A stretch of 63,749 bases of DNA, counting the filler. It is 4 parts of 4 records of this genome, joined end to end, with 100 filler letters (N's around TTAATTAATTAA, not from the genome) between each part and the next. Parts side by side here need not be neighbours in the genome. Positions count along the whole stretch, not along the records: positions 1 to 23,299 come from DRR723986_9362; 3 more parts are not named here. The stretch is one strand, 5' to 3'. This document shows, in pieces, positions 2,418-57,422 of this stretch. Made by a program: the position numbers and the translations under genes. The notes beneath the pieces were generated by a model. It was not told the DNA's origin. It was given only the letters and a program-made list of their open reading frames with translations, and made no database searches. Each line of letters starts with the position of its first letter. Positions within the stretch are counted from its first letter, which is position 1.

Positions 2418-2484
2418 GCCCTTTCTGTGCTTGCGCTCCCCACAATCGACTGCAATTATTTCACACTCCCGGGATGTTTCACAC

Positions 2485-3771
2485 ATGCGAACTCTTTTAC
2501 AACTGCGCTACTTCATGTTACTTGGCTTTGGCCTCCTGTTAACAACAGCCTGTGATGACGACGACGACAACAATGATGGCGGCTCGGATTTCCCCACAGA
2601 ACCCGTAGCGCTTGAACCGCGCACCGCGCTGGAGTCATTCGGTGACGTCACCGTCTGGAACGGCGGTTATGGTTCCGGAATGTCGCTCGACCCAACATCC
2701 GACCGCCACTTCTACATCATGACTGACCGCGGACCGAACTTTGACGGTGCCGACGGCGACTCCAAAGTTTTTCCGCTGCCGGACTTTAATCCCGTGATTG
2801 GCCGTTTTCAGCTGGCAAACGGCGAGCTAAACCTCGTCTCCAGCATCGTTCTTAAAGACGCGAGCGGCACACCGATCACCGGCCTGCCAAACCCCATCGG
2901 TGCCGGCGGAACAGGTGAAACCCCTTCCGACCTCAGCGGAAACATCCTCAACTTTGATCCGAATGGCCTCGACCCCGAAGGTCTGTTTTTCCTGGATGAC
3001 GGTACGTTCTGGGTCAGCGACGAATACGGCCCCTACATGATCCACTTTAACGCCAATGGCACAACCATTGAGCGCATCAGTCCATTCTCCGAAGGTCGCC
3101 GTCTGCCGCGCGTCCTCCAGAAGCGCCGCCCCAACCGCGGAATGGAAGGCCTGACGGTCACGCCGGACAACTCCAAAGTTGTCGGCATCATGCAGTCCTC
3201 GCTCGATAACCCCAGCCGCGACGTACGCTCGACGTCGCGGGTGACCCGCATCGTGCTATTCGACGTCAACAGCGGCAGCTCACAGATGTTCATCTACGAG
3301 CAGGAAGCTCCCGCACTCAGCAACAGTGCAATTGTGGCGCTCAGCAACACGACATTCCTGGTGCTGGAGCGCGACGGCAAATTCCAGAATGATGGCGCAG
3401 TCTACAAACGCATCTACAAAATCGATATCAGCAATGCTACCGACGTCCTTGGTGATGACGGCGAAAACGGCATGCTGCTCGACGGCAAAACACTCGAAGA
3501 AAGTTCACTTTCCGAAATCAGCGCCGCTGGCATCACCTCCGTCAGTAAAAGCCTGGTACTTGACCTGTTAACAGTTTCCGGCGGTTATCCGCACGACAAA
3601 CCCGAAGGTGTTGTGCTGATTAACAGTACGATGCTCGGCATCATCAACGATGATGACTTTGGTGTTGATGACAACGGCAATGGCGGCCTGATCCAGAAAG
3701 TTTTGCCCGGAACGACTGAGACCGACAGCAATCAAATGTACTTCGTGCGCCTCTCAACGCCAGTAATGTAA
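2485..3771 (+). CDS. phytase-like esterase family lipoprotein
   Basis: Lipobox LLTTA-C plus acidic tether; TDRGPN, LDPEG, WVSDEYGP, NRGMEGL, LERD, DKPEG and INDDDFG motifs; ATG 2485 preferred to TTG 2431. Confidence 0.88.
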   Translation: MRTLLQLRYFMLLGFGLLLTTACDDDDDNNDGGSDFPTEPVALEPRTALESFGDVTVWNGGYGSGMSLDPTSDRHFYIMTDRGPNFDGADGDSKVFPLPDFNPVIGRFQLANGELNLVSSIVLKDASGTPITGLPNPIGAGGTGETPSDLSGNILNFDPNGLDPEGLFFLDDGTFWVSDEYGPYMIHFNANGTTIERISPFSEGRRLPRVLQKRRPNRGMEGLTVTPDNSKVVGIMQSSLDNPSRDVRSTSRVTRIVLFDVNSGSSQMFIYEQEAPALSNSAIVALSNTTFLVLERDGKFQNDGAVYKRIYKIDISNATDVLGDDGENGMLLDGKTLEESSLSEISAAGITSVSKSLVLDLLTVSGGYPHDKPEGVVLINSTMLGIINDDDFGVDDNGNGGLIQKVLPGTTETDSNQMYFVRLSTPVM

Positions 3772-3927: not shown

Positions 3928-6453
3928 TTAGTTGTCTGAGACCAGTGCGGCCGGCACTTCGGCGGCACGGCGGCTTCCGCGACCGTTGCCATTGTTGCTG
4001 CCGTTGTTGTTTCCATTGCGGCGGCCACGGCCCGAGCTACGCTCCTGACCATTTTTACGTACAGTCGCAGCCTGTGCATTGCTAACCGTCACACGCAGGG
4101 CGCGCAGCCCCGAGACTCCCTGCATCGCTTCCAGCTCAAAGGATTCGATCTGCGCTTCGATTTTGCCGATGCTCTGCAAGTAATTCAGGAATTCTTCATA
4201 CTCGCGCGCTTCTTTAGTCTGCGAATACACAATCGCGATTTTACCCGGCTGTGTTAAACGCTCGCCAGTGTCCTTGACGACGGCTTTATCAATCCGCTTT
4301 TTGATAATCTCATAACGAATGTTGTACGCGCCGTCCACATCAAACTGCTTTTCGTCCACGCGGAAGCGGATGGCCAGTGGCGTGTCCTGCACCAGAATCA
4401 AATGCGCCGAAGAGAGCGGCAGCGGTAATTCGCTACGCAAAGCATCGGTTTTCTGCACAACTTCACACATCACTTCCAGCTGCCACAAACGCAGATTCTT
4501 CAAATACATCCGGTCAAAGTAACCATCCGCATTCAGCGAAGCGCCCACGTACATGCCATGGTCAACACCATCACTTTTGTACTTTTCAAAGTAATGCGGG
4601 AACATCGCCTGCGCATTTTCCTGGGCGCGGTCCAGAATCAGGCCGACGGCGTCATTGATTTTGGCGACGCTCTCGTCAAACTCGCGACGCTTGCGGTAGA
4701 CGATGTTAACATCCGGAGAGAGGCTGTCGTAGTAAATCTGCACCGAACCATCCACCGTCTCGGAGAAGGTGCGCAGATGTGCAAACAGCGGTTCAACTTC
4801 ATTGCGCAGATAATCCAGAATCGAGAGCTCATCCCCCGATCCCAAATGCTCAAGCACCGAGTCCACCATCTTGCTCAGCCGGAAGCCCAACTCCTCAAAG
4901 ATTGGCATCGGTTTGACCGCAGCGGCGTTGCGCACAACGTCCAGCGCCAGACTCAACTGCCCAGCCAGATCATCGCGAATACATTCGTTGCGCTTGCTGC
5001 TCGAATTGCGAATGTCGGAGAGACCATAGAGTGGATACACATTCTCAAAAACGATCGGCTCCATCTCCGTCGTTACCGGCTCACCGGCATTGCCCTGCCC
5101 CAGTACGTTAACTGCGGCACGATGGAAACGCCATTCCACGGCAGGATGAATTGCCGTGCACTCGTTCTTGATAATCTGCTGAATATGCGCGTTCAGGTCA
5201 TCAACCGAACGGCTCATCGCCACCGAAAACAGTGGCAGCACGCGTTGCATCTTCAGGATGTTCAGGCTCGTCAGGTCGCCTGGGTTGGGTGAGGCCAGCT
5301 CAATCATCCCCAGCACTTCACCATCGTGCACCAGCGGTGCCACGGCCACATTGCGCAGCCCCGCCTCCATCAGCAGGGTCTCCATCGCCGTTAAATTCTC
5401 TACGCGGCTCAGGTCCGTTTCAACTACAAAACCGCCGCTTTGATAGGCGCGGTCGTAGACCGATCTCTGGAAGGCATCGCAGGTCAGCCCACAATCTTTG
5501 GTGATCACCAGGCTGCGCCCCAGGCGGCTGGCGAACATCATCATCGTGCCGTAGTCTTTGGCAAAGGGAGTAATCCCCAGGCGCAAATCCGGGCGGCGCA
5601 TGAAGTTGCGCATCGCACGCTCCAGGCGGTCAAACGACTCGGAACTCGTCAGCGCGTCAGACTCAATCAAACGATATTTGAGGCGTGAGAGGGTTTCCTG
5701 CTCACTTACGTCAATCGCCGTGAAAATCGAAATGCCATGGAATACAAAACGGTCCAGTGGCAGCATGCGCCCCCATTGCTCCAGATCCGTCGAATTTTTC
5801 ATTAAAGCGTCAAGGTCACAATCGTCCAGCTGCGGCAGCTCGCCCACAACCTCGATGTCCATAAAACGCAGATCAATTTCGCTCTGGAAATGCAGGTCCA
5901 GCCCCGTGTCCGGATTCGTCGCGGAAAAGACCCACGGCACTACGAACTCAAACTTCCGTCCGTAGAAACGCGTCAGAATCAAGCTGTAGGCATTCATGAT
6001 TTTAGCATGCATCACCACGTCGATGTCCATATTCACACGGAACATCTTCTCGGCATCACCCGCATCACCCGACACGTACTTGTGGAAGGTTTTGGTCGCA
6101 TAAATGACCTCGGTGGAAAACGGCCGGAAGGCACCAACCATCGCCGAAGCCTGTTGTGCTGGTGGCACGATTGCCGTCATCAGGCACTCAATCAGATCGC
6201 GGTGTTTTTCTACTGCACTTGGATCCACGGAAGGCTCCAGCAGTTCCGGTGCGGCTTCTGCCAGCTCCAGAATCTCACCTGCCATTTTCGAGTGCAGCCC
6301 GTCGGAATTCTGCACCATCTGCCGCCAAAAATCGATCAGCTTTTCAAAACTAAGCCGCGACTGCATGTGGATTCCACGCTCCGCCAAATACTCATCTATC
6401 GTACGCATATTCATCTGCGCACTACGTTCAAGTGGTAACGATTTCTTATCCAT
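3928..6453 (-). CDS. large GAF-domain protein with a putative divergent class III nucleotidyl cyclase C-terminal region (paralog 1)
   Basis: GAF signature GLRNVAVAPLVHDGEVLGMIELAS; C-terminal YPLYGLSDIRNSS, EKYKSDG, FDVDGAYN and ERLTQPGKIAIVYS; ATG 6453 (TTG 6486 possible). GAF call is firm, cyclase call is inference. Confidence 0.8.
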   Translation of the reverse strand: MDKKSLPLERSAQMNMRTIDEYLAERGIHMQSRLSFEKLIDFWRQMVQNSDGLHSKMAGEILELAEAAPELLEPSVDPSAVEKHRDLIECLMTAIVPPAQQASAMVGAFRPFSTEVIYATKTFHKYVSGDAGDAEKMFRVNMDIDVVMHAKIMNAYSLILTRFYGRKFEFVVPWVFSATNPDTGLDLHFQSEIDLRFMDIEVVGELPQLDDCDLDALMKNSTDLEQWGRMLPLDRFVFHGISIFTAIDVSEQETLSRLKYRLIESDALTSSESFDRLERAMRNFMRRPDLRLGITPFAKDYGTMMMFASRLGRSLVITKDCGLTCDAFQRSVYDRAYQSGGFVVETDLSRVENLTAMETLLMEAGLRNVAVAPLVHDGEVLGMIELASPNPGDLTSLNILKMQRVLPLFSVAMSRSVDDLNAHIQQIIKNECTAIHPAVEWRFHRAAVNVLGQGNAGEPVTTEMEPIVFENVYPLYGLSDIRNSSSKRNECIRDDLAGQLSLALDVVRNAAAVKPMPIFEELGFRLSKMVDSVLEHLGSGDELSILDYLRNEVEPLFAHLRTFSETVDGSVQIYYDSLSPDVNIVYRKRREFDESVAKINDAVGLILDRAQENAQAMFPHYFEKYKSDGVDHGMYVGASLNADGYFDRMYLKNLRLWQLEVMCEVVQKTDALRSELPLPLSSAHLILVQDTPLAIRFRVDEKQFDVDGAYNIRYEIIKKRIDKAVVKDTGERLTQPGKIAIVYSQTKEAREYEEFLNYLQSIGKIEAQIESFELEAMQGVSGLRALRVTVSNAQAATVRKNGQERSSGRGRRNGNNNGSNNGNGRGSRRAAEVPAALVSDN

Positions 6454-6539
6454 AAGCTCAGGCTCTGGGTAGATTGTCCGCGGCAAGATCGCTCTGGACA
6501 GCTTAAGGCCTTTACGCTTTGCGTAGGCCGGCTTGATTT

Positions 6540-9059
6540 TTATGTTTTGCTCTGATCCGTCAGCGAGGAGCTGTCAAACGAAGCCACAAGTTCTTGCAGG
6601 CTTCCATTCTCGCTCGCGCCGGCAGCACCATCAACAGTCGCGGCCGCTGCGGCAGCGTCCTGCTGTCCATTACGTACAATCGGTTCGCAGGCATTAGGAC
6701 ATACATTGACGCGCAAAGCCTGCATTCCTTGAATTCCCTGCACAGAGTCCAGCTCAAGAGACTCAATTTCCGCTTCCAGATAACCAGCCGACTGCAGGTA
6801 TTCAAAGTATTCGCGATACTCAAACGCGGCTTTGGGCTGAGAGAAGACGACAGCAATCGCTCCAGGTTGCGTCAATCTTTCCTCGGTGCCGCGAATTTTG
6901 ACTTTATCGATGCGTTTTTTGATGATTTCGTAGCGCAAATTGTACGCACCATCAACGTCGAACTTCTTATCGTCCAGTCGGAAACGAACCGAAAGCGGCT
7001 CGTCATGCACCAACACTAAATGTGAAGTCTCCAGCGGAATCAGTAGCTCGGTCGCCAGCATCTGTGTGCGGCGCGCTACGCGGCAGAGCAGCAGCAACTG
7101 CCACAGGCGCAGGTTGCGCAGATACATGCGGTCAAAACCATCGCGTTCCACCAGCGATGCACCAACGTACATCACGTGTTCCACGCCGTCGGTTTTATAC
7201 TTTTCAAAATAGTGCGGGAACATTTCCTGCGCGCGATCCTGCTCATAATCCAGTAAGGTCGAAATCTCGTCGTTTAGCCGCATCAGCGAGAGGTCAAAGT
7301 CGCGGCGGCGGGCATATACCATGCCTACCGTCGGGTCAATTGAGGCCACGTAGGTATCAATAGCTGCAGCCACGTCCTCACCAAATCCGCGCAGGCGTTC
7401 AAACACCGATTCGATATTCTCGCGCAGAAAGTTCACGATTCCGGACTCATCACCGGAAACTACGCCACGGCTTATGTGGCTGATATGTTCTTCGGTGCGA
7501 TGTTTAATCTCGCGCAGAATCGGCATTGGCTCGCGGTCTAATGCTTTTTCGACCACTCGCAGCGCCATCTGTAGTTGCTTGAGCAGGTCGCTCTGGATCG
7601 CCTGATTGCGCAACTTGGAGGAATCGCGCACATCACTCAGGCCGTAGAGCGGAAAGACATCATCAAACACCAGGTCGCGCATTTGTGCCGTGGCGTCATT
7701 ACCGCGCTCTTCCAGCAGCTTAAAAGCCGCCGAACGGAAACGCCACTCCACCGTAGGGTGGATTGACGTGTATTCTTCCTTAATCAGCGCTTCCACGTGA
7801 TTGTTGAGCTCATCTGCACTGCGATCCAGCGCCACCGCAAACAGGGGCAGCAGGTCGCGAATTTTTATCAGATTGACGGTGTTAAAGTCATGCGCGTCCG
7901 GGCTGCCCAGCTCTAACATGCCCACCATCTGGCCATCGTGCAGCAGCGGCGCTACCACCACATTGCGCAGGCCCAGCTGGCGGAAACGTTCTTCCAGAAC
8001 GCCACAAGAGTCCAAAGTCTCCAGATCGTCAATTATCTCAACTTTACCCGAGCGGGCGGCACTGCCATACAAAGACTCAAGGACGGACTCCGATGTTGCC
8101 AGGCACTCATGTGTCAGCGCCAGGCTGCGTCCCAACTGACGCGAAAGTCCAAGTGTGTTGTCCAGGCCGGCGGCATAGGCTGCCACTCCCAGGCGCATCG
8201 TGGGCCGTTTCAGGTAGGCACGCACCTTATTTTCCAGTTCGGTAAAAACCGCCTCGGAGCTGAGCGCCCCCTTTTGGAGCAGGTCAAAGCGCATACCGGA
8301 AAGCATTTCCTGGTCGGTTATGTCCGTGGCATGCATGATGGTAAAACCGCGCATCTCAAAGTTTTCCGGTGGCAGAATGCGCAGCCAAACATCCAGGTTT
8401 GTCATGTTCGTGCGTAGCTCGGCCAGTTCGGCTTCACTGAGTTCCTTGTGCTCACCGTGCTCGATAATGTCTATGAAGCGCGGATCAATCATGATTTTGT
8501 AGTGCCGCTCCAGCCCGGTATCCGGATCGGGAGCCACAAAAACGACGGGAAACTCAAAGCGTAGGTTCACACCATAAACCTTGCCCATGATCGCTACATA
8601 CATGTGCACCATGCGCGCCAGGAACATCTGCTGTTCCTCAAAGTTCATCGTGAAGTTTATTTCGCCTTCACGCAGGCGCAGGTAGCGATTGAAGTTTTCG
8701 GTAGTAAACAGCGGCTGCATGTCCAGTGGTGAGACCGCCGCAATCAGATGGCGCTCCCAGGCTCCCGGAGCTATGATGCCCGAAAACAGGAAATCTACCA
8801 GGGGTCTGTGTTTTTCTATTACTGTGACATCAGTGATGACGCCATGCAGCTCTTCGCACTGCTCCACGAGTTCAAACAGGCGCTGCCATTCGGCTTTGAG
8901 CGGATGGTCGGTTTTGAGAAGTCGGTTGCGCCAAAAATCGCGCAGGCTGTCCAGACTCAGGGTTTGGCTGAGTGGTTTTTCAGCGGTCCCGGAATAGTGA
9001 AACAGCTTGACTTCCTGCAGGCTTGCTTCGTTTCCTGTTTGCATACGTTGGCTCGGCAC
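6540..9059 (-). CDS. large GAF-domain protein with a putative divergent class III nucleotidyl cyclase C-terminal region (paralog 2)
   Basis: Collinear with the adjacent gene along its length: GLRNVVVAPLLHDGQMVGMLELGS, FPLYGLSDVRDSS, EKYKTDG, FDVDGAYN, ERLTQPGAIAVVFS; start GTG 9059 or ATG 9044. Confidence 0.8.
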   Translation of the reverse strand: MPSQRMQTGNEASLQEVKLFHYSGTAEKPLSQTLSLDSLRDFWRNRLLKTDHPLKAEWQRLFELVEQCEELHGVITDVTVIEKHRPLVDFLFSGIIAPGAWERHLIAAVSPLDMQPLFTTENFNRYLRLREGEINFTMNFEEQQMFLARMVHMYVAIMGKVYGVNLRFEFPVVFVAPDPDTGLERHYKIMIDPRFIDIIEHGEHKELSEAELAELRTNMTNLDVWLRILPPENFEMRGFTIMHATDITDQEMLSGMRFDLLQKGALSSEAVFTELENKVRAYLKRPTMRLGVAAYAAGLDNTLGLSRQLGRSLALTHECLATSESVLESLYGSAARSGKVEIIDDLETLDSCGVLEERFRQLGLRNVVVAPLLHDGQMVGMLELGSPDAHDFNTVNLIKIRDLLPLFAVALDRSADELNNHVEALIKEEYTSIHPTVEWRFRSAAFKLLEERGNDATAQMRDLVFDDVFPLYGLSDVRDSSKLRNQAIQSDLLKQLQMALRVVEKALDREPMPILREIKHRTEEHISHISRGVVSGDESGIVNFLRENIESVFERLRGFGEDVAAAIDTYVASIDPTVGMVYARRRDFDLSLMRLNDEISTLLDYEQDRAQEMFPHYFEKYKTDGVEHVMYVGASLVERDGFDRMYLRNLRLWQLLLLCRVARRTQMLATELLIPLETSHLVLVHDEPLSVRFRLDDKKFDVDGAYNLRYEIIKKRIDKVKIRGTEERLTQPGAIAVVFSQPKAAFEYREYFEYLQSAGYLEAEIESLELDSVQGIQGMQALRVNVCPNACEPIVRNGQQDAAAAAATVDGAAGASENGSLQELVASFDSSSLTDQSKT

Positions 9060-11277: not shown

Positions 11278-11844
11278 TCACTGGAATTTTTCAATGTCGG
11301 CCAAATAAGGCGAAAGTATATTCCTGATGCGGTCCTTGGCGCGCCAAACGCGGTTCTTCAAGGCAGGAATAGTATCGCCAGTGATTTCTGCTATTTGTGA
11401 GTAGGACATGCCTTCGTATTCCTTGAGCACAAATGCTTCGCGGTATTTGATGTCCAGCAGCCCCAGGGCAGTTTCGATCAGCTCCAGCAAATCGCGCCGC
11501 TCGTAGCTCTCATCCCGACTGGAAAAAGTGAAGTCGTCCAGATCAAGGAACTGCTTTTTATCACGACGGTGATTGTAACACAGGTTACGAGCAATCTTAA
11601 AGAGATAAGAAGGTACATTCTGGACTTCATAACTCTTGAGCGCCGCACGATGAAAACGAATGAAGGTCTCCTGGTAGACATCCTGGGCATCACCATGGTC
11701 GCCCAAAATCTTGAGGCAATACATAAACACACGGTTACCAAAACGTGCGTAAAGCTCAGCGAAGGCACGCTCACCTTCCGCCTTGCCGCCCGCAATGCGT
11801 GAGTATAACTCAAAGTCACTCGTGTTTTTGTCGATGTTCTGCAT
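11278..11844 (-). CDS. ECF-family RNA polymerase sigma-70 factor
   Basis: Region 2 (AQDVYQETFIR, YLFKIARN) and region 4 (YREAFVLKEYEGMSYSQIAE..TIPALKNRVWRAK). Confidence 0.93.
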   Translation of the reverse strand: MQNIDKNTSDFELYSRIAGGKAEGERAFAELYARFGNRVFMYCLKILGDHGDAQDVYQETFIRFHRAALKSYEVQNVPSYLFKIARNLCYNHRRDKKQFLDLDDFTFSSRDESYERRDLLELIETALGLLDIKYREAFVLKEYEGMSYSQIAEITGDTIPALKNRVWRAKDRIRNILSPYLADIEKFQ

Positions 11845-12066: not shown

Positions 12067-14148
12067 TCAGGCCAGAGAACGTAAATACTCAAGGGTTTCG
12101 ACCTGAGCATCACAGCTCTCACGGCGACGTGTGGTGACATAGCGGTTGCTCAGACGTTGATCTATAACGCGTGCCTTGACCGTATCATTCGTATGCAGCG
12201 TCATGAGTTCCTGCAATGTTTTGCGGACGGCGGGATCGTGGAGTGGCACACCAACTTCAATGCGCGAATCGAGATTGCGGCGCATCCAGTCTGCCGAAGC
12301 CAGATACATTTTGTCTTCGCCGCCGGCGTGAAACATGAAAACACGCGGATGTTCCAGGAAACGCCCAACAATGCTGGTAATCTTAACATTTTCACTCATG
12401 CCACGCACGCCGGGAACCAGACAGCAGATTCCGCGAATAATCAAACGTACTTCCACTCCGGCAGCCGAGGCTTTGTAGAGGCGTTTAATCATTTTGCGAT
12501 CTTCCAGCGAGTTCATCTTGGCAAAAATTCGCGCCGGTTTACCGGCTTCGGCCGCCGCGATTTCAGCATCGATTAAGGCGCGGAACTCTTCGCGCATGCC
12601 CGCCTGCGCTACCAGCAGATGTTTAAACTTGCGCTCCGGCATGTCTTTTTTCTGCAGCGCTTCAAACACATTACCTGCATCGGCGGCGATACCGGGGTGA
12701 GCGGTAAACAAACCAAAGTCTGTGTAAATCTTAGCTGTTTTTTCGTTAAAATTCCCTGTGCCAACGTAAACATACTCTCTCAGGCTCTCGCCTTCACGGC
12801 GTGCAACGTAGGCCAGCTTGGCGTGAACTTTGAGGGCGGGCATACTGTATAGAACTTGCACACCGGCCTTCTCCATTTCGGCGGCCCAATAAATGTTAAG
12901 TTCTTCGTCAAAGCGCGCCTTAACTTCTACAAACGCCAGCACACGTTTACCATTGCGTGCAGCGCGGATCAGCGCCTCAACGACTTCGGATTTGGCAGAG
13001 ACACGGTACAAGGTGACGCTGATCTTCTCAACAGCTGGGTCTTCAGCGGCTTCCTGCAGAAAGCGCGAGACATAGGTAAATGATTGATATGGAAAATGTA
13101 GTAGTTGATCCTGTTCGGCAAGACACTTAAACAAACTCTCACTTTGCTCAAAGGCGCGCAGCGGCAGCACTTCCTGCTTGGGGTATTCCAGATCGGAGCG
13201 CCCAAAAGTAGGAAAAGCAAAAAAGTCGTTAAAGTTGTGGTAACGTCCGCCGGGCACCAAATCGGCCTTGTTTAATTTAAACGAATGACGCAGGAAGGAC
13301 AGGAACCCCTCAGGCATATCCATATCGTATAAGAACCGAGCAGGCACACCTACATGCCGCTTCTGAATACCTTCTTTGATTTTTGCAACCAGGTCGCCGG
13401 AGGTCTCATCGTCGATGTACATCTCGGCATCACGTGTTAACTTGATCGAATAGGTGGCAAGCGGATCGTGTTTTGGAAAAATCAGCGGCAAACTATCGCG
13501 GATGATATCATCCAGAAACATAACCGAATGGCCTTTGCGCGAGGCGGGCACCTGCACAAACCGCCCGAGCTTGTCGGATGGAATTTCCAGAATTGCCCAA
13601 TTCGAGCGGCGCGTACGCCGGAAGGTGCCGCGCTCAACATCTTTTTCTATCAACTGAACTGTTAAGTACAGTGCTTTATTCTTGAGGAAAGGTGGATTGG
13701 TGTCTTCATCAATGATGACTGGTTCGAGGAGGGCCTGAACATGTTCGCGAAAGTAGCGCCGTGCGTAACGCCGCTGATTGCGCGTAATCTGGCGTTCATT
13801 CGGCAAATGAATGCCGGCGGCATTCATTTCGGGCAGCACTTGTTGGCGGTAGATTTCGCCAAAGCTGTCCTGCTGGCGTTTAACAATGCGGTGAATATGG
13901 CGCAGCAGTTCCTTAGGTGGAACGTCGCGCTTTTTGCTTTTGTGTTTAGGCAGATCTGCCAGGCTGCGCGTCAGCGCTACACGAACGCGGAAAAACTCGT
14001 CCAGATTTGACGAAAAGATGGCTAAAAAACGCAGGCGTTCAAACAGCGGAACGGTCCTATCGGCCGCCTCCTGTAAAACGCGGTGGTTAAACGCCAGCCA
14101 GCTGATATCGCGGTCGTGGTAGCGCTGTTCTGTTTGCAGTTCTAACAT
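12067..14148 (-). CDS. ppk1: polyphosphate kinase 1
   Basis: RDISWLAFNHRVLQEA, FSSNLDEFFRVRV, LLHFPYQSF, EVKARFDEE, KVHAK, GTGNFN, GRFLEH and SADWMRRNL; ATG 14148 avoids overlap with sixA. Confidence 0.97.
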   Translation of the reverse strand: MLELQTEQRYHDRDISWLAFNHRVLQEAADRTVPLFERLRFLAIFSSNLDEFFRVRVALTRSLADLPKHKSKKRDVPPKELLRHIHRIVKRQQDSFGEIYRQQVLPEMNAAGIHLPNERQITRNQRRYARRYFREHVQALLEPVIIDEDTNPPFLKNKALYLTVQLIEKDVERGTFRRTRRSNWAILEIPSDKLGRFVQVPASRKGHSVMFLDDIIRDSLPLIFPKHDPLATYSIKLTRDAEMYIDDETSGDLVAKIKEGIQKRHVGVPARFLYDMDMPEGFLSFLRHSFKLNKADLVPGGRYHNFNDFFAFPTFGRSDLEYPKQEVLPLRAFEQSESLFKCLAEQDQLLHFPYQSFTYVSRFLQEAAEDPAVEKISVTLYRVSAKSEVVEALIRAARNGKRVLAFVEVKARFDEELNIYWAAEMEKAGVQVLYSMPALKVHAKLAYVARREGESLREYVYVGTGNFNEKTAKIYTDFGLFTAHPGIAADAGNVFEALQKKDMPERKFKHLLVAQAGMREEFRALIDAEIAAAEAGKPARIFAKMNSLEDRKMIKRLYKASAAGVEVRLIIRGICCLVPGVRGMSENVKITSIVGRFLEHPRVFMFHAGGEDKMYLASADWMRRNLDSRIEVGVPLHDPAVRKTLQELMTLHTNDTVKARVIDQRLSNRYVTTRRRESCDAQVETLEYLRSLA

Positions 14149-14173
14149 CTTGTAGTCTTCCTTTCGCTGAGCT

Positions 14174-14689
14174 TCAGTCTGCGTAATCGTCGGAAGTGGT
14201 GTACTTTTTAGGATATTCAAAAAACACCACACTTCCGTTGTTCTGGCGGATGTCCGTCCAGCGTTCAACATCAAATTCAATCGCTACTATCGCACTGGTT
14301 GGAATATTGTCAATACGGTAGTTGCTTAACATGTTGGAGAGCCATGTTAAACTGGGATTGTGCCCAAACAACATCACACTGGCATGGCGGTCAGTAGATG
14401 AGTGGATCACCTCAAGCAGGTCTTTCGGCGTCGCCTCATAAATGCGTTCATCCGTCCGCAGTTGATGTAGTGGAAAAGAAATGGCATTGGCCAGAATGCG
14501 AGCATAGGTAATCGCGCGGCTGGCCGGACTGGAGATAATGGCATCCGGACGGACGCGTTTGCGCCGCATGACTTCGCCCATCAGCGGAGCGTCACGCCGG
14601 CCACGTCCGTTGAGGGGACGTTCAAAATCTGTTAACTCTTCATATTTCCAGCTGGACTTGGCATGCCGTGCCAGATAAACAGTTTTCAT
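14174..14689 (-). CDS. sixA: SixA-like phosphohistidine phosphatase
   Basis: LARHAKSSW, DFERPLNGRG, SSPASRA and FGHNP histidine phosphatase motifs. Confidence 0.88.
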   Translation of the reverse strand: MKTVYLARHAKSSWKYEELTDFERPLNGRGRRDAPLMGEVMRRKRVRPDAIISSPASRAITYARILANAISFPLHQLRTDERIYEATPKDLLEVIHSSTDRHASVMLFGHNPSLTWLSNMLSNYRIDNIPTSAIVAIEFDVERWTDIRQNNGSVVFFEYPKKYTTSDDYAD

Positions 14690-14835: not shown

Positions 14836-16062
14836 TCAGGCAGCAATTACTGCAACGCCGAAGGCGAGGATCGACAGGATTAACCCGTACATAAATACAT
14901 CGTATGAGATCCGCAGGAATTTGTACTTGCGGCTAAGAACGCGCCCCAGAAAGAACAAATCCTTTGTCAGACTATCATACAGGTATTCACGATCGCTCAT
15001 CATCTCGCGCATTCCCCAAACATAGTCGTCCAGGGTCACGTTAAAAAAGTTGCCAAAAAACAACAGGTTTACACGCCGTTCTTTGACGTCCGTTTGCGTA
15101 AAAGTTCCCTCGGTCACTTTGGGACGCGTGGAAATGGTCGCAAAGATCAACGTCACAACACAAACAGTCAGCAAGAGGAGCGTTGGCGCAATCAAATGCG
15201 GATTCGCTTGCAGGTCATCAACCAGTAAACTTACCACAATCGAGATTATGATAGCGTTAACACTGATGAGCATGTTCGCTTTGTTATCAGCAATCGCACT
15301 GAGGTTGATGTGGTTGCGCATGGTAACGCGGAACATCGTCTCAATTCCGCGGTCCGGAACAATCGATTTGTTCTTGATTGACTCAAGCTTCTTCTTCTGG
15401 ACTTTGAGCTTGATGTCTTCTTCTTCGCGCTTGCGTTTACGCTTGCGCATCTTTTTCTTGAGTTTGGCGATTGTGGCCAGCTTGGTCGCCTGGTAATTGG
15501 CCACGGCGTAGTCGGTAAAAAACTGGTGTTCCAGCAAAAACTGAATGCTTTTTTTCATCCAGTCTACATCGCGGTAGCGCTCTTGTGACGTGTGTTCCCA
15601 CTCAACGCGCAGCAGGTCATTACTTTCCTGAAAAGACTCCAGGCCCACATGCTGCAGGTCAGCATCACAGATAACCTTTTCCATCATCGTCTGCGGGTTG
15701 GGCGGATACTTTGTGACCTGGATAAGGGAACGCACCGTATCAATCTTGGCGGCAGGGTAATTACGTGCCTGCAGGTATTCCGCAGCCATTTCCGCACTGT
15801 TTTGCTCGTGATCTTCACGTCCATGGATATATCCAATGTCATGAAACCAGGCCGCCAACTGAACCATCTCCAGTTCTTCGGCATTTAAGCCCGAAGCTTC
15901 ACCTATAAGGCACGCAGCATCTACGACTTTCGAGGTATGCGCGTAGTTGTGGTAAATGTAGGAGTTTTCTAACTGACGACTGAGAATTGAAGCAACGTGA
16001 TCGCTCACATCCTTCAACAAAACTTCAGTATCACCCATGCTTGCCTGGCTAGTTGTACTCAT
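14836..16062 (-). CDS. HD-domain phosphohydrolase fused to a PycTM/DUF5706 transmembrane effector domain
   Basis: YHNYAH, AAWFHDIG, DHE and CDADL (HD fold); basic linker; then ADNKAN, TM-TM-RP, LLFFGNF, RKYKFLR and a final TM (PycTM pattern); ATG 16062 has an AGGAG RBS. Confidence 0.85.
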   Translation of the reverse strand: MSTTSQASMGDTEVLLKDVSDHVASILSRQLENSYIYHNYAHTSKVVDAACLIGEASGLNAEELEMVQLAAWFHDIGYIHGREDHEQNSAEMAAEYLQARNYPAAKIDTVRSLIQVTKYPPNPQTMMEKVICDADLQHVGLESFQESNDLLRVEWEHTSQERYRDVDWMKKSIQFLLEHQFFTDYAVANYQATKLATIAKLKKKMRKRKRKREEEDIKLKVQKKKLESIKNKSIVPDRGIETMFRVTMRNHINLSAIADNKANMLISVNAIIISIVVSLLVDDLQANPHLIAPTLLLLTVCVVTLIFATISTRPKVTEGTFTQTDVKERRVNLLFFGNFFNVTLDDYVWGMREMMSDREYLYDSLTKDLFFLGRVLSRKYKFLRISYDVFMYGLILSILAFGVAVIAA

Positions 16063-16158
16063 TCGCTCCTGCGCCCTAAAACGTATAGGCAGTGCAAAAA
16101 AGCCGTAAAGTATCAATAATTAAGGCGCGGTGCAATCTGGGATCGGAACCGGTCTCGA

Positions 16159-50179: not shown

Positions 50180-53100
50180 TCAGTTGGCGGCGTTTTCAAG
50201 CGCCGGTTTGATTGTGGTTTGCAAGATCGTCCGAGCACCCGGGAGAGTGCCGCCGGGTACCTGTCGGATAGCCGCTCGCGCGCCCTGGCTGTCTATGTCC
50301 CCTCGGGCAATTTGGGCGGCGATAGTCGCGAAGTCCTGCAGGTTCCCGACCGTTGGCCCAAGAAACGCCCCGGCGGCATTCCGGCTTGCGTATCTCGAAA
50401 CGTCGGCGCCTCTGTCTTCGTCTCCTGCGATGGCTTGAGCCGCAGACTTGACCCCGAAGGGAGAGCCCATTTTTTCCGCCGTGTTAGAGACATCCATAAG
50501 GACCGTTGCAATTCCGGTTCTGTCGAAGCCGTCAGCGATCCAAAGGCCCGGATTATCGGTTAGACGGTCAGCGGCTTCAAAGTCCCCCCGCTCAATGAGC
50601 TTGAGGTAAGAAACCATCATGCCAAACGCCGTTCCAAACGCCAGGAACTCGGCAAGGTGTTTCGGCCGTCCCTGCAGGCGAGACAACAATATGCGCTGAT
50701 GCGCGGCCAGACCGAAGCTTTTGAACTGCATTGCAAGCTTTCCGGCATTGGAGCGTGCCCAGAGCGGTTTATCTGCAATGCCCGGTGTAACGACCCCGCC
50801 ATCAGCCTCTTTGCTCAGTGCCGCACCTATGACCCGGCGCGCGTCCGTATCTTTCCAGGCTCGGAGATTGAGCCCCCATATCCCGCCATCATTCACCGCG
50901 AATTTGTCGATTTGATCGGCAATCCGGGTTGCCATCGCCTCGTCAATACCGAGCTTGCCGAGATAGCCGCGCTCATATTTTGAGAGCTTGGCAAAGGAAG
51001 CCTGTCGGCCGACTGTCCCCCACTTGGTCGGAAGTTCCTCCAAACTGCCAAGCGTAAGGCGGGCGATCTTGTTACCAGCCTGCAGCGTGACAATTGTTTT
51101 CATGGTGTCGTTCCAACGATCAAGGAACGTCAGCCGCGAAAACGTGGATGAAACGTTGCTCATGAGCCGATCAGCGACATTGCCGGCCGCATAAGGGTCA
51201 TGCAGTTCCGCCAGCTCAGCCAACCGGGTTTGGAGAACCGTTTCCGTGATTATGCCCCACTCGCGGGCGTCACGTTTTGCGATCCTTGCCGCCTTGGTGG
51301 TCGACACAAGGCCCGTTAATCCGTCATCCATGAATGACCGCAAGCCTTGCCGAGTCATGACACTCGCCATGTCGGGCAAGCTGGAAAGCAAGACACCGCC
51401 GAGCAGTCGGATATAGTTCCACCCCAAAGCGAGACGGGTGAAGGTCGACCAGGCGGAACGCTCTTCGGCCGCCCGATAGGTCCCCCGCAACATGTCGCGA
51501 AACGCCTCAATGTGGGCAATGTCAGCACGTTCCCGGTTTTCCAGGCTCTTCAATGCCTTTTCGCCTTTGGTCTGTGCCCGCAACGCCGCATAGTCGTCAG
51601 TTATGGCCTTGATCTGGTCTTTCATGTCAGCCCGGCCGAATGCCCGGGTCAGCTCCACTTCTGACGCCATTTGCCGCACATACCGCCGGGCAATCATTTC
51701 CATGTCATTGACAAGGAAGCCCTCTATTTGCTCGTCAGGAATGTGAAGCGTCCGACCCTTCAAAGGTCCGCGGCTAACAGGCACCATCCAGTCGGGCACG
51801 TCCTCGACCTGTCGGCCGGTGATTTTGTCGAAGGTGCTTCCCACGATTTCGTCAACGTAGCCGTCAATGTCTAAGTCGTCGGCAAAGTACAGCTCTTCGC
51901 CCCGATCCTTCGGCAGCATTGGCTTGAGTTTATCAACTTTCGCCTTTGCCTTTATCACCCGTTCGTCGGCCTTGTTCTTGTCGGCCCGGAGCGCTCGCAA
52001 CTCTGCATCCATGTCCGGCGTCATCCGCCCTTCGGCTTCAACGCGTTCAATGGCCTCGATCCGGTTTCCGATCCGGGCTTGATCGTACCGGCCCTTTGCG
52101 AAAGCCTTTCGGGCGTCGGCGAAATCGACCAAGATTTTGACCGTTGGCGAGGCATTGGCCTGCTGGCGCACCTCGTTGATTTTCGCCTCCAAGTCATTCA
52201 GCTCATCCGCAAAGCGGTTGGCTTCTGCTTCGGCAATGAGACGTTCGGCCGAGATTTCGTCGGTAAGTCTGTCGAACTCTTCCAGCTCACCCGTCATCCT
52301 GCCGATAGCCTGGTCAAGATCCGACAGCTTGTCTTCTTGCTTCAAGGCCCGGCTCAGTCGCTCGCGCACCTGTTTAACCGTTGCGTTTGAAGGCAAGCCG
52401 ATGCTTTCCAACCATTGTTCCGCGTTTGCCTCAAGAGCTTCGCGCGCAGCTTCGGCCGCCAACTCGTCTTCAGTGCGAAGTGGTGCGCCGGCCATTTCAT
52501 CACGGATCGCCGCCAAGATTTCATCCGGGTCAGCGTAGCCGTTCTGGTCTGTGTGCATCCGGGCAAGCAACGGGTCTTCCCGCGCAACCAAGTTGTCGAC
52601 CGCTGACAGGCCGCCTTCCTTTCGGAACAAGCCCGGGGCAGTCTTCGGGGTGACCCCCATATGCCTTAGCTCTTGGTCCAGCGCAGAGCCGATCTTAACG
52701 CCGCCTTTCTGCGACAGTAGAGACAGCACAGGACGCTTTTGCCCGGCCTTCACGGATTGGGAAGCCTCTGCCACTGACCGCACCATGACATCGTCATCAG
52801 CCGCTTGCTTTGCCGCAGCAAGAACCGTTTCAGGAACGCGGCCCCGGAGCACGTCAAAGCGCTGGCCTTCCTTCCGGCGGATCGCTGATAGTTTGCCCTC
52901 GCGAACCTTCCTGCGATTGGCCAGGCGTTCGTCAACGGTCTCGACACGCCCGAGCGCACGGCTTAGCTGTTCGTCAACGTCAGATGCCCGGTTGATGTTC
53001 TTGGCAATCTCGATTTCCTCTTGCCGTGCAATCGCCCTGTCGACCTCGCCGCGAATGTACTGCTTGAGGATGCCCCGAAACTGCCCCTCGCCTGCAAGGA

Positions 53101-54385
53101 TCTTTCCCCGGTCATACATCCGGTAAAGATAGCTTGGTGCGGTGGTCACCTTCACGCCTTCCGGCAAAAGGCGAACGCCCACAGCCTCGTCCTTCAGCGG
53201 GTCCGCTACGTCTTCGCGCCAGGACCGTGCGACAGCTTCAACGAACTCGTTGCCGTCAACGTCTTTGTCGCCGCGTCGGGTGGCACGGGCTACGGCCGCG
53301 TCAAAGTCCGCCTGCTTCCCGGTGAACCCTGCTTTCCGTGCCGATTTGAAGCCCTCGCGCCTTTTCACAATGAACGTTGCAAGGTTGCCTTGGTAACGCT
53401 TCATCGTGCTTTCCACCGCCGGGCCAAGTGTTCGGCCTTCCAACTCGCCCGCCGTGCCGACGTGGTTTTCTGCCAGCTTCAGGAACGTGGTGCGGGACTT
53501 CATGGAAGGAGAGGTTAGAAGCTGAAGCCCCGGGTTTAGGCGTACAGCCGCCGTTGCGTTCGCAATCGCCTTAGCCGCACGGCCGCCACCAATCTGCAAT
53601 TCCTTTTCCCAATCGACCGTATCAAGGTCATCGGTTGCCGCAGAACCAGCACTGCGCAGCTTCCGGACAATCTCTTGCGAGACTTGTGCAGGATGCGGCG
53701 TTGCGTCGGCCAAGTCCTCTTCAAGCGCGTGGCTGAATTTTGCCCAATCCGACCGGCTGAAGATTTGAGCGCCAGCAGCGCCGAGCACCCCGCCCAGAAT
53801 GACAGAGCCGCCGACCACATAAGCACTGTCGCCCGGGTCGCGGGTCTGTTGCGTCAGGTGCAACGCGCCTTCCTGCAAAGCTGCGCCCGCACCGGACGCC
53901 ACGCCGACGGATAGAGCAGAGCGGCCGACGAAGTAGCCCGCGCGCCCAGCCTTCGCCAATGCGCCGCCTGGAAGCAATAGCGTAGGGCTGGCAACACTGG
54001 CGAAAATCTCGGCACCTGTACCGCCCCAACCGGCCGCCTCAATGGTTTCCCGGTCACGCTTTTCCCGGTCAATATCGGCCTTGATGGCTTCCACGACGGT
54101 TGCGTTTTGGGCTTCAAGGAAGCGGTCGGAATGCTCTTCATAGCCCTTCAAGTCACCGTTGGTGAAAGGGTTATATTCCGGATCAACCCGGAAATATTCC
54201 CGCTTGTCGAGGTCAAGAGCTTCTGAGGCGAGCAGTGAACCGACTTCATTTTCTGACCGGAACGCAGCACCCGTGGCGCCGAAGAAGCCGGGCTTTTCCA
54301 CTCGATCACCAGCCCGTGCGTTCAGATCAAACGGAGTGTAAGCCCCCGTGTCGCTGGAAACGGGGCTGTTCTTATCAAGCGGCAT
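50180..54385 (-). CDS. large internal virion (DNA ejection) protein
   Basis: 1401 aa, Ala/Gly-rich helical, last and largest of three genes after tail tubular B; C-terminal GKLAMQFKSF. Confidence 0.75.
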   Translation of the reverse strand: MPLDKNSPVSSDTGAYTPFDLNARAGDRVEKPGFFGATGAAFRSENEVGSLLASEALDLDKREYFRVDPEYNPFTNGDLKGYEEHSDRFLEAQNATVVEAIKADIDREKRDRETIEAAGWGGTGAEIFASVASPTLLLPGGALAKAGRAGYFVGRSALSVGVASGAGAALQEGALHLTQQTRDPGDSAYVVGGSVILGGVLGAAGAQIFSRSDWAKFSHALEEDLADATPHPAQVSQEIVRKLRSAGSAATDDLDTVDWEKELQIGGGRAAKAIANATAAVRLNPGLQLLTSPSMKSRTTFLKLAENHVGTAGELEGRTLGPAVESTMKRYQGNLATFIVKRREGFKSARKAGFTGKQADFDAAVARATRRGDKDVDGNEFVEAVARSWREDVADPLKDEAVGVRLLPEGVKVTTAPSYLYRMYDRGKILAGEGQFRGILKQYIRGEVDRAIARQEEIEIAKNINRASDVDEQLSRALGRVETVDERLANRRKVREGKLSAIRRKEGQRFDVLRGRVPETVLAAAKQAADDDVMVRSVAEASQSVKAGQKRPVLSLLSQKGGVKIGSALDQELRHMGVTPKTAPGLFRKEGGLSAVDNLVAREDPLLARMHTDQNGYADPDEILAAIRDEMAGAPLRTEDELAAEAAREALEANAEQWLESIGLPSNATVKQVRERLSRALKQEDKLSDLDQAIGRMTGELEEFDRLTDEISAERLIAEAEANRFADELNDLEAKINEVRQQANASPTVKILVDFADARKAFAKGRYDQARIGNRIEAIERVEAEGRMTPDMDAELRALRADKNKADERVIKAKAKVDKLKPMLPKDRGEELYFADDLDIDGYVDEIVGSTFDKITGRQVEDVPDWMVPVSRGPLKGRTLHIPDEQIEGFLVNDMEMIARRYVRQMASEVELTRAFGRADMKDQIKAITDDYAALRAQTKGEKALKSLENRERADIAHIEAFRDMLRGTYRAAEERSAWSTFTRLALGWNYIRLLGGVLLSSLPDMASVMTRQGLRSFMDDGLTGLVSTTKAARIAKRDAREWGIITETVLQTRLAELAELHDPYAAGNVADRLMSNVSSTFSRLTFLDRWNDTMKTIVTLQAGNKIARLTLGSLEELPTKWGTVGRQASFAKLSKYERGYLGKLGIDEAMATRIADQIDKFAVNDGGIWGLNLRAWKDTDARRVIGAALSKEADGGVVTPGIADKPLWARSNAGKLAMQFKSFGLAAHQRILLSRLQGRPKHLAEFLAFGTAFGMMVSYLKLIERGDFEAADRLTDNPGLWIADGFDRTGIATVLMDVSNTAEKMGSPFGVKSAAQAIAGDEDRGADVSRYASRNAAGAFLGPTVGNLQDFATIAAQIARGDIDSQGARAAIRQVPGGTLPGARTILQTTIKPALENAAN

Positions 54386-56904
54386 TACTGGCCTGCCTTT
54401 TCAAGTTGGTTGAACTCTTCGGCCGCTCGGCTCATTTCGTCCAATGGAGCGCCGCCCGGCTGTTCAGATGGCCGCAGGCTGTCGCCCAGGGCTTTACGTG
54501 CTGTCGCGTCTTCACGTTCCTGCAGGTATTGCGCGCCGTTCTGCTCAAAATCGGCGGCTTTCCGCGCTTGTTCCGCAGCGATCGCACCCGGTACGTCAGC
54601 TTTGAAAGCAAAGGGCAGTTGCTGCAACACGCCGTCTTTGTCGACATACTGCAGCGTCAGACGCGGTTCCCGCTGTGCGCGGTGGTCAGCAACCGTGTAT
54701 TCGTTGCCCACGAGGTAGAACCGCTTTGCGTCTATGCCTTCCTCTTTCAGAGCGGCTTTGACCTGATCGCCGATGTACTCGTGGCCGCTATCCCCTACCG
54801 GCGGATAGAGCTTTTCAACCGGGTATTTCAGCACCACGCCGGAACCGTGCGGGGAATATTCGGACGTTCCCCACGTGCGGGACATGCGTTCAAACGCCAG
54901 CTTTTCGGCCGCATCCAGATCGCCCCCGACTTCCCCGAGGCTTTCCTTGAACAACTGCCGGAACTCGGAAACCGCCAAGGCCTTGCCCTCTTCCGAGGTG
55001 CCAAGGTCCGGACCGATGGAAAAGACCCCCTTGTCAAAGAACCCTTCCACCCGGGTTGCGTCGATCTTCTTCAAATGATCCTTGACCGGCTGGCTGTCCA
55101 ACAGCGCGTCACGCTGCTTTATCGCTTCCGGGCTGTTCAGTTCGGCCAATCGCTGACCGGCTTGCACCGCATCCAGGCCGAGCCCTTCTGTGTAGAGCCG
55201 CCACTTGGTTGCCGCGTCTTCAAGCTCCGCACCGTTATCGGCACCGCGCACGGCCTGCGGGTTCATCGAATAAAGAGCCGCAGCCCGCTCATATGCCGCG
55301 CCTACCTGCAACGGGTCGGTGCCCCTCAAGCCGTTCCGCACAAAGTCAACGTAAGGCTTAGGGACAACGCCTTTGCCGGCAACAATGGCAGAGGCAACCC
55401 GGTCCGGATCTTGTTCCGTGCGCATTGCCTGCTGGTAGACCAGCTCAGCGCTTTTCCTGTCGTCAGGGTCCAGCGGATTGGCGGCCGCCCCGCTGTTCGC
55501 CCAATCAATCGCCTTGCGCTCTTTCTCCCCGTCTTTAAGAGCGCTGTTCAACGAGTTGATAAGCGTGGCTTTCTGGCCATCGTCTAAGATCGCATCGTCA
55601 AGAACCTGCTGACGGTCGACAGTCAACGGATCGGTGGCAATCTGCAGGCGGTAAGCGTCCTGGCGGTCAGAAGCGACCGACACAAGATCGCGTTGCGACT
55701 GATCGTAGAGCTTGACTTGGTCCTCATACGAGATCCGGTCTAACCGCTCTTGAACTTCAGGCGGGGCGTTCGGGATCGAGACTTTACCCCGGATAATGTC
55801 GGCCTCTTGTTGCCGACGTTCTGAATTGACGCCGCCGTTGTCACCTTTCAGCCCCTCGACCGCCGCCGCGATTTGCTCAAGATCGCCAGACCTGACAGCC
55901 GCATGGAGCCGGTCAGGAACTTCCCCATAGTTGTACGTGATCGAGGAAAGCGCAGCTTGCGCCCGTGGCGGCAACCGTTGCCAGGCATCCGCACCAACCT
56001 GCTTAACCGCGATAGCCTGAAACTCGGCAATGCGGCGTTCCAGATCGCGTTCAGCGTCCGCCCGGGTTATCACCGTGTCCTTGGTGACTTTGACGACTGT
56101 ACCATCTGCCTTTGTCACCGTGTCGGAGCCGTACCCCACACGCCAACCGGAAAACTGCTTCCCGTCATGCCCGCCAGTGTCGGCATAGGCCTTGGTTTCA
56201 AAACCTTCACGCGAGCGGATCAACGAACCGGCATCGATAGCAGACACGCCGAACAACTCAGCCCGCTCGGTGGCCGGCAGCGTTTCAGCCCAGGCAATCG
56301 ACGCCATACGTTCCCAAGACTTGAGGGCGTTTTGTTTCTCGATGTCAGGCAGGCCGCTTTCCGTGATCAGCGAGCGCCCGACCTCAAGAGCCTCATCATA
56401 GGTATTCGGGTTTGCTCGAATGCCTTTCGCCAACTGGTCGGAGCCTTCGGCAATGCCCTGCTTAAAGTACCGGGTGCGCTCTTGGAGCTCGGTTTTGGCA
56501 AAGCGGTTTGTGTATCGGTTCCGAAGGTCCGCAACATCAAGTTTAGCCTGTGCCCTTGCGCCTTCCGGCAGGCTTTGAATGAACGCCGTAGCGTCCTGAT
56601 CAAATTTCGCCTGCATCGACTTGGTGTAACCAGCGGCGCCAGGCTGCAGGTTGGTTTGCGCTTCAAGCTCTTTCTGCGAAAACTGCCCTTCGAAATCGAG
56701 CCAGCCTTTTTTGCGCTGAAAGTCGTCAATCTCGTTTTGCCGGCGTTGCGACAATTGAGCGAGTTGGCCGACCTGCCCGGCTGACTGCTGGATCTGACGG
56801 CCGAGCCCTTCCACCGCCCGCCCCTGCGCCGTGTCGGCGATGACGGTAGGTTGCCGCACCCCAGGCAGTGCCCGGTTGCTGCGGTATCTGTCGAAGTTTG
56901 CCAT
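54385..56904 (-). CDS. internal virion protein with a GH24 lysozyme domain
   Basis: IRSREGFETKAYAD...WRVGYG, ITRADAE..L, AL.SITYNYG and RRQQEA embedded in a helical protein. Confidence 0.8.
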   Translation of the reverse strand: MANFDRYRSNRALPGVRQPTVIADTAQGRAVEGLGRQIQQSAGQVGQLAQLSQRRQNEIDDFQRKKGWLDFEGQFSQKELEAQTNLQPGAAGYTKSMQAKFDQDATAFIQSLPEGARAQAKLDVADLRNRYTNRFAKTELQERTRYFKQGIAEGSDQLAKGIRANPNTYDEALEVGRSLITESGLPDIEKQNALKSWERMASIAWAETLPATERAELFGVSAIDAGSLIRSREGFETKAYADTGGHDGKQFSGWRVGYGSDTVTKADGTVVKVTKDTVITRADAERDLERRIAEFQAIAVKQVGADAWQRLPPRAQAALSSITYNYGEVPDRLHAAVRSGDLEQIAAAVEGLKGDNGGVNSERRQQEADIIRGKVSIPNAPPEVQERLDRISYEDQVKLYDQSQRDLVSVASDRQDAYRLQIATDPLTVDRQQVLDDAILDDGQKATLINSLNSALKDGEKERKAIDWANSGAAANPLDPDDRKSAELVYQQAMRTEQDPDRVASAIVAGKGVVPKPYVDFVRNGLRGTDPLQVGAAYERAAALYSMNPQAVRGADNGAELEDAATKWRLYTEGLGLDAVQAGQRLAELNSPEAIKQRDALLDSQPVKDHLKKIDATRVEGFFDKGVFSIGPDLGTSEEGKALAVSEFRQLFKESLGEVGGDLDAAEKLAFERMSRTWGTSEYSPHGSGVVLKYPVEKLYPPVGDSGHEYIGDQVKAALKEEGIDAKRFYLVGNEYTVADHRAQREPRLTLQYVDKDGVLQQLPFAFKADVPGAIAAEQARKAADFEQNGAQYLQEREDATARKALGDSLRPSEQPGGAPLDEMSRAAEEFNQLEKAGQ

Positions 56905-56915
56905 TCAATGCACCG

Positions 56916-57419: not shown

Positions 57420-57422
57420 TTT

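Follow-up and report, generated by a model that had tools for sequence, protein, structure and literature searches.

The GAF protein pair of the window

The window analysed here is a DNA stretch of 63,749 nucleotides, which encodes on its minus strand two paralogous proteins, P0001 (paralog 1) and P0002 (paralog 2), whose C-terminal halves are predicted to be divergent class III nucleotidyl cyclase domains, termed here the cyclase homology domain (CHD; Table 1). P0002 lies directly upstream of P0001 on the same strand and shares its architecture, with 43% identity between the two proteins (332/775 residues). Residues of P0001 are numbered from its TTG start, while the true start, going by the N-terminal consensus of the family, is probably the ATG at 6414 or 6408 (M25 or M27). 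The stretch 4085-5045, equivalent to P0001 residues ~481-801, was singled out by an initial annotation for a series of cyclase-like motifs, which begin in P0001 at residues 487 (YGLSD, containing D491), 634 (EKYK, leading to K635 and D639), 715 (FDVDGAYN, containing D716 and N722), 742 (ERLTQPG) and 794 (LRALRV). The equivalents in P0002 are D476, K620, D624, D701 and N707, and the residues claimed for both paralogs are all at their given positions in the translated open reading frames (ORFs; codons of D491, D639 and N722 checked).

Table 1. Features of the window and their positions (residue numbers refer to P0001 unless P0002 is named).
Feature	Position	Strand	Remarks
P0001 (paralog 1)	3928-6486	minus	852 residues counted from the TTG start
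P0002 (paralog 2)	6540-9059	minus	839 residues; architecture as in P0001
N-terminal alpha/beta domain	5713-6414	minus	residues ~25-258; confident model
GAF domain, P0001	5176-5712	minus	residues ~259-437; found by both fold and profile
Linker/signalling helix, P0001	5053-5235	minus	residues ~418-478, from GAF to CHD; helical in both models
Predicted CHD of P0001	4084-5052	minus	residues ~479-801, beta1 to last strand including the insert; AlphaFold2 model and fold matches
Predicted CHD of P0002	6702-7670	minus	residues ~464-786; carries D476, D624 and N707
Predicted helical insert, P0001	4648-4959	minus	~104 excess residues, ~510-613; boundaries approximate
D491, proposed metal Asp 1	5014-5016	minus	end of beta1, motif S-D-I-R-x-S-S; 270/270
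D639, proposed metal Asp 2	4570-4572	minus	two-residue beta2-beta3 turn, T/S-D-G; 270/270
N722, position of the canonical transition-state Asn	4321-4323	minus	N-terminus of predicted alpha4; 258/270 N, 11 D
HD-PycTM membrane protein (P0271)	14836-16116	minus	HD domain and C-terminal three-transmembrane module; candidate partner
ECF-type sigma factor	11278-11844	minus	upstream of P0002
ORF of 446 residues	9921-11261	minus	no Pfam, NCBIfam or PADLOC hit
ORF of 215 residues	9228-9875	minus	no Pfam, NCBIfam or PADLOC hit
PA0069-family radical SAM protein	1212-2270	plus	NF033668, 4.6e-144; downstream of P0001
Phytase-like esterase	2431-3771	plus	PF13449, 4.8e-49; just downstream of P0001
1401-residue ORF	50180-54385	minus	no Pfam hit
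839-residue protein with phage lysozyme domain	54385-56904	minus	
gp14-like protein	56916-57419	minus	PF24072, 1.2e-11
810-residue ORF	57423-59855	minus	

Proteins of this family consist of an N-terminal alpha/beta domain, a GAF domain, a long signalling helix and the CHD. Regulated class III cyclases are usually built of a sensor, a helix and a cyclase domain. Fold searches with the N-terminal half returned lists filled by GAF matches, while the Foldseek matches of this half to phytochrome PAS-GAF-PHY modules are loose (template modelling score ~0.25) and unconvincing. In an alignment of 270 family proteins, from which all conservation counts given here are taken, the signalling helix bears the invariant motif T-A-I-H-P-x-V-E-W-R-F, with W452 and F454 present in 270/270.

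Predicted fold of the C-terminal region

Residues 440-810 of P0001 were modelled with AlphaFold2 from 82 aligned family members, giving a mean predicted local distance difference test score of 94.4 and a predicted template modelling score of 0.90 (model residue number plus 439 equals P0001 residue number). When this model was compared with PDB by Foldseek, class III cyclases (adenylyl, guanylyl and related) made up 35 of the 37 rows shown, the best being Cya2 (2w01_B, E 8.5e-05, probability 1.00), while the other two rows were polymerases with probabilities of 0.15-0.20. The cyclase matches span model residues ~39-365, and three independent fold searches agree on class III cyclases, aligning 164-215 residues of domains that are 167-260 residues long. 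Model residues 1-28 moreover co-align with the helix preceding the CHD in sGC, GC-A, AC9 and a phytochrome-cyclase. The structural models thus display a CHD fold in the C-terminal region, as the initial annotation had proposed, and a GAF fold upstream of it; the cyclase palm fold, on which that proposal was staked, is present in the model, since nearly all of the Foldseek rows are class III cyclases. A chance resemblance of motifs within a C-terminal half of unrelated fold, to which the weak sequence-level statistics described below would lend some weight, is scarcely credible, as the model is confident and class III cyclases are the common outcome of three independent fold searches. No GGDEF chain is among the 50 rows listed in a wide fold search, which is not an exclusion, and GGDEF has no Pfam hit at E <= 10 in either paralog, the hairpin of the family reading K-(T/S)-D-G-V-(E/D).

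In the model, strand beta1 ends at D491 and is followed by five predicted helices over residues 495-628, in place of the two short helices of canonical domains. This surplus of ~104 residues sits between alpha1 and alpha2 and forms a helical bundle, in agreement with the ~100-residue helical insertion expected between the two Asp residues. Strand beta2 (632-637) and strand beta3 (640-647) are joined by a turn spanning residues 638-639, so that D639 is the second residue of this hairpin turn. Beta3 is followed by a long alpha3, a beta hairpin and a short strand over F-D-V, and then by alpha4 (721-734, from model residue 282), which begins with Y-N722. A 14-residue loop after alpha4 carries E-R743-L-T-Q-P-G, and the last elements of the domain are beta6, alpha5 and a final hairpin. 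Two copies of residues 440-810 predicted together with 2 ATP and 2 Mg gave interaction prediction scores from aligned errors (ipSAE) of 0.00 and 0.00, a prediction made without alignment which bears neither way on dimerisation.

Conserved residues of the putative active site

The residues D491, D639, G640, G719, K729, R731 and R743 are invariant in 270/270 family proteins, as are D506 and Q626 in the inserted helices, while S495 (269), R499 (269), R600 (268), R798 (268) and S496 (259) are nearly so; a further invariant basic residue, R724, lies near N722 in the sequence. The motif D-I-R-x-S-S at the first Asp parallels D-L-r-G-f-T in canonical domains, with 23 cyclase domains of family-carrying genomes serving as reference. 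Because D491, D639 and G640 are invariant and N722 is retained in 258 of the 270 proteins, the motif pattern is, as judged from the alignment, beyond chance. In the modelled fold, the invariant acidic pair and the conserved Asn occupy topologically fitting places. In the class III cyclase fold, the beta2-beta3 turn lies next to the end of beta1, and D491 and D639 are presumed to be adjacent in space from this topology only, just as the register that makes D639 the second Asp is taken from the predicted beta2-beta3 hairpin.

These residues may alternatively belong to a pseudo-cyclase, whose CHD-like domain would act without catalysis, either in nucleotide binding or as a scaffold for dimerisation or regulation, and some class III cyclase-like ATP-binding proteins provide a non-catalytic precedent. 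Such a role seems decidedly improbable for the family, as the acidic pair, the Asn and ~20 other polar residues vary little or not at all in 270 proteins from many phyla, which would be unusual if catalysis had been lost, and both paralogs of the window retain the conserved residues. Among the 41 columns conserved to at least 97%, P0001 keeps 41/41 and P0002 39/41, the exceptions being E to D and L to M.

On balance, the family is probably a new class III subclass of active, sensor-regulated cyclases. In such an enzyme the N-terminal/GAF module would sense a ligand or state, and the long helix would relay the signal to a dimeric CHD, in which D491 and D639 would hold two metal ions and a nucleoside triphosphate would be turned into a 3',5'-cyclic nucleoside monophosphate and pyrophosphate. 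The canonical transition-state Arg, absent from its usual position (see below), might be made up for by other conserved basic residues, namely R499, R600 (within the insert), K729, R731 or R743.

Observations weighing against cyclase activity

Several observations weigh against this assignment, a first group of which comes from sequence searches. PF00211 (Guanylate_cyc) gave no Pfam hit at E <= 10 in either paralog, a single-sequence search of PDB (phmmer) returned 0 hits, and a search of PDB with the family profile returned 29 hits at E <= 10, none of them a cyclase and all either GAF domains or noise. Apart from noise, the Pfam matches of both paralogs were limited to weak GAF hits, and an NCBIfam scan of the two proteins gave nothing meaningful. 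Alignment of the whole domain with the 23 canonical CHDs by hhalign covered 78 columns at P 0.055, and the first Asp motif alone was placed correctly. Deleting the insert columns made the alignment collinear over 179-180 columns, with P 0.0069-0.052 across 7 deletion windows (best 0.0069), which is suggestive and not proof. All of the sequence methods therefore fall short of significance, and the Pfam, PDB and hhalign results at the same time match the expectation of the initial annotation that the fold would be hidden from profile searches. A PF00211 search of five genomes carrying the family found ordinary cyclases, and in three complete chromosomes (G002-G004) every match lies elsewhere than the family loci. 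The CHD of this family clearly illustrates how a familiar fold can escape profile searches when it carries a large insertion and changed catalytic residues.

A second group concerns the proposed catalytic residues. In the reference domains the canonical motif N-x-A-x-R places the transition-state Arg four residues after the Asn, a position held in the family by E726 in 266/270 proteins, while R743 lies 21 residues past N722 in the alpha4-beta6 loop. As N722 opens alpha4, the two motif assignments made around this helix in the initial annotation cannot both have the canonical spacing. The hhalign alignment sets D491 on the first Asp of the canonical F-x-D-L-r-G-f-T, and it sets D639 two residues off the canonical Asp while matching K637, T638, G640 and G648 to K, T, G and G. 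As this register puts residues 641/642 at the Asp position, residue 642, which is always acidic (147 E and 123 D), could be the true metal ligand. In addition, the 104-residue insert lies beside the usual dimer and substrate surface and could alter the chemistry.

The specificity positions are variable, with K635 being K in 209/270 proteins (R in a further 28) and D716 being D in 229/270, and the equivalence of K635 and D716 to the purine-specifying pair of Lys at Asp2-4 and Asp/Glu before the Asn depends on the inferred register. The proposal of ATP as substrate, which was drawn from these two residues, is thus a weak first guess. A cyclase fold with another chemistry, which might yield a pyrimidine cyclic nucleotide as PycC does, a 2',3'-cyclic or linear product, or nucleotide hydrolysis or transfer, is unlikely, though it deserves serious attention. 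Pycsar systems combine a pyrimidine cyclase, PycC, with a PycTM effector, and PycC structures (8jsz, 8jsf and 7r65) are as close to the family CHD as purine cyclases are. Purine cyclases, however, obtain equal scores (rows that differ by no more than 1 Z unit being counted as ties), the PycC models of PADLOC have no match in the family, and K and D are the majority state at the purine-type positions.

Comparison with known class III cyclases

The nearest known enzymes to the probable sensor-regulated cyclases described here are class III cyclases with N-terminal GAF or phytochrome sensors, such as the cyanobacterial guanylyl cyclase Cya2 (2w01) and CyaB of P. aeruginosa (3r5g), together with Spirulina CyaC (1wc0/1wc1) and the phytochrome-linked cyclase 6fht. 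Unlike these, the family has no PF00211 match, contains the ~104-residue helical bundle, and separates the two Asp residues by 148 positions, whereas the canonical domains in which both motifs were found have 44. It further has T (225/270) or S (45/270) in place of Gly before the second Asp, Glu at the canonical Arg position, and an alpha4-beta6 loop ~14 residues longer, while the canonical K-G-K-G hairpin is replaced by Q-G-x-x-G-L-K/R-A-L-R. Both the wide Asp-Asp spacing and the S/T substitution had been pointed out in the initial annotation for the two paralogs, and the latter extends to 270/270 family proteins.

Another bacterial family of divergent class III cyclase-like proteins is DUF2652, which includes members from Bacteroidetes and was recognised computationally (Ramakrishnan et al. 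2016, PMC4886424). DUF2652 proteins are single-domain proteins of ~250 residues, which according to a reviewer's comment are readily found by PSI-BLAST and HHpred (PMC4886424), whereas the proteins described here have ~800 residues with a GAF domain and an insert. The family is distinct from DUF2652, whose Pfam model has no match in it at E <= 10.

Family size and distribution

Relatives of the C-terminal region number >8,000 at 90% clustering (all 8,000 scored candidates passed) and, at 50% identity and E <= 0.001, fall into at least 1,118 clusters, 624 of which have E <= 1e-30. They are nearly all ~800 residues long with a common layout, longer fused forms numbering 0 among 3,240 candidates, and their public names are only 'GAF domain-containing protein' or 'hypothetical protein'. 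Among species-representative genomes, 602 matched stretches were obtained, of which 545 encode a relative, and the best 80 loci were kept. These belong to Bacteroidota (many orders, including Ignavibacteria and Rhodothermia), Gemmatimonadota and Rokubacteria/Methylomirabilota, and also to Poribacteria, Entotheonella and some Gamma- and Deltaproteobacteria. Family members from distant phyla are 40-58% identical, and the gene is usually present in single copy; of 121 genomes sampled evenly across the phylum to which one carrier belongs, 18 carry the family.

A search of the ESM Atlas with residues 440-810 returned only clusters of the same family, some of them with PF27174, a Pfam 38 family displayed as 'YeeD' by the Atlas tool. 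PF27174 is precomputed on many close relatives and occurs on 23-33% of the members in the Atlas clusters nearest to residues 440-810, and part of the C-terminal region is therefore probably already covered by it. The domain may thus be catalogued in Pfam without a cyclase link in print. Literature searches returned no description of the family and nothing on PF27174, YeeD with a GAF domain, DUF5706, or PycTM with an HD domain; one paper containing both 'YeeD' and 'cyclase' proved to be unrelated, as it deals with cold-shift transcriptomics of E. coli.

The confident fold and the conserved residues of so large a family suggest that it makes an unrecognised cyclic-nucleotide signal in a wide range of bacteria. 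If the proteins are active cyclases, surveys of cyclic-nucleotide signalling have overlooked an entire branch, and the strong link to the PycTM-type membrane protein described below would tie a defence-type effector module to ordinary signalling.

Among the loci compared, a true tandem duplication is confined to the window and its closest relative (83% identity), other apparent double loci being a single gene in pieces. The gene is present in two pieces of ~300 and ~480 residues at five loci (L003, L006, L030, L034 and L063), and also in P0062, P0054 and P0107, and many database entries of 470-490 residues come from long contigs. The split genes are due either to frameshifts that recur or to a natural arrangement in two genes, one for the N-terminal domain and the other for the GAF-cyclase part.

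The HD-PycTM membrane protein

The window further encodes an HD-PycTM membrane protein (P0271), which contains PF18967 (PycTM, 1.8e-34) and an HD domain (6.1e-07) and ends in a module of three hydrophobic helices matching PADLOC PycTM (PDLC02364, 2.3e-13) and the CBASS 2TM effector (2e-13). In the 81 loci compared (the best 80 and the window), an HD-PycTM protein of ~400 residues is the commonest neighbour after the family itself, occurring at 22/81. Within the sample of 121 genomes, PF18967 is found in 18/18 carriers of the family and in 31/103 non-carriers (Fisher p 9e-09), and the ~400-residue form in 17/18 carriers and 15/103 non-carriers (p 4e-11). In 11/18 carriers the two genes lie within 15 kb of each other on one contig, and in 6/18 they are directly adjacent. 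A PF18967 match was also found in 7/9 further carrier genomes, which were examined as two sets of five with one genome (G046) common to both. The family is thus linked in the genome to the HD-PycTM membrane protein.

The strength of this link is tempered by the Fisher tests, which ignore relatedness and therefore overstate independence. Outside the sampled phylum it is looser, three genomes having ORFs of 175-279 residues only, and one set of five further genomes includes 1 without a PF18967 match. In the window itself, HD-PycTM lies 5.8 kb from P0002 with four other ORFs between them.

Under the favoured reading of the family as sensor-regulated cyclases, the co-inherited HD-PycTM protein would read or degrade the cyclic product. 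A Pycsar-like anti-phage system, with the cyclase acting through HD-PycTM as membrane effector, would account for the matches of HD-PycTM to PADLOC PycTM and the CBASS 2TM effector and for the co-occurrence and frequent adjacency of the two genes. It is nevertheless very unlikely, as neither P0001 nor P0002 has a PADLOC hit at E <= 0.1, the four ORFs noted above separate the family genes from HD-PycTM in the window, and the family is strongly conserved across distant phyla, usually as a single copy, among neighbours that include the housekeeping genes PPK1, MsrB, Der GTPase and SelO. Pycsar also differs in that the partner found here has an additional HD domain, and the family is large and conserved across phyla, with no obvious defence context.

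A further reading, to be regarded as possible but doubtful, goes beyond the favoured one in several respects. It takes the family as a new and widespread class III subclass, in which the insert would provide catalytic or regulatory residues and a product that is possibly a pyrimidine or otherwise non-canonical cyclic nucleotide would act on HD-PycTM. Such a system would be a chromosomal housekeeping counterpart of Pycsar in Bacteroidota and in other phyla thought to be poor in cyclic AMP signalling.

Polyphosphate kinase 1 (PPK1) adjoins HD-PycTM in three unrelated settings, namely in the window (12067-14280 and 14836-16116), at four Cytophagales loci (L026, L044, L057 and L060), and in one genome (G021) where only 1 kb separates the two genes and the family gene is far away, which hints at a link of the HD-PycTM protein to polyphosphate metabolism. 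A metallophosphoesterase neighbour also bears an Omp85-like part.

Other features of the window

An extracytoplasmic function (ECF)-type sigma factor gene and then two ORFs without database hits lie directly upstream of P0002 on the same strand, and these ORFs may form an anti-sigma pair or belong to one operon with the paralogs. For the radical SAM and phytase-like genes downstream of P0001, no link to the family was found. The phytase-like gene was considered as a recurrent neighbour of the family and rejected, as it is no homologue of the SdiA-regulated/phytase-like gene that occurs near the family in Bacteroidota.

The region 50180-60439 (minus strand) has a G+C fraction of up to 0.58-0.61 and contains ORFs resembling the internal-virion and tail module of T7-like phages, among them the gp14-like protein and the protein with a phage lysozyme domain (Table 1). 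This region is probably a prophage or a prophage remnant.

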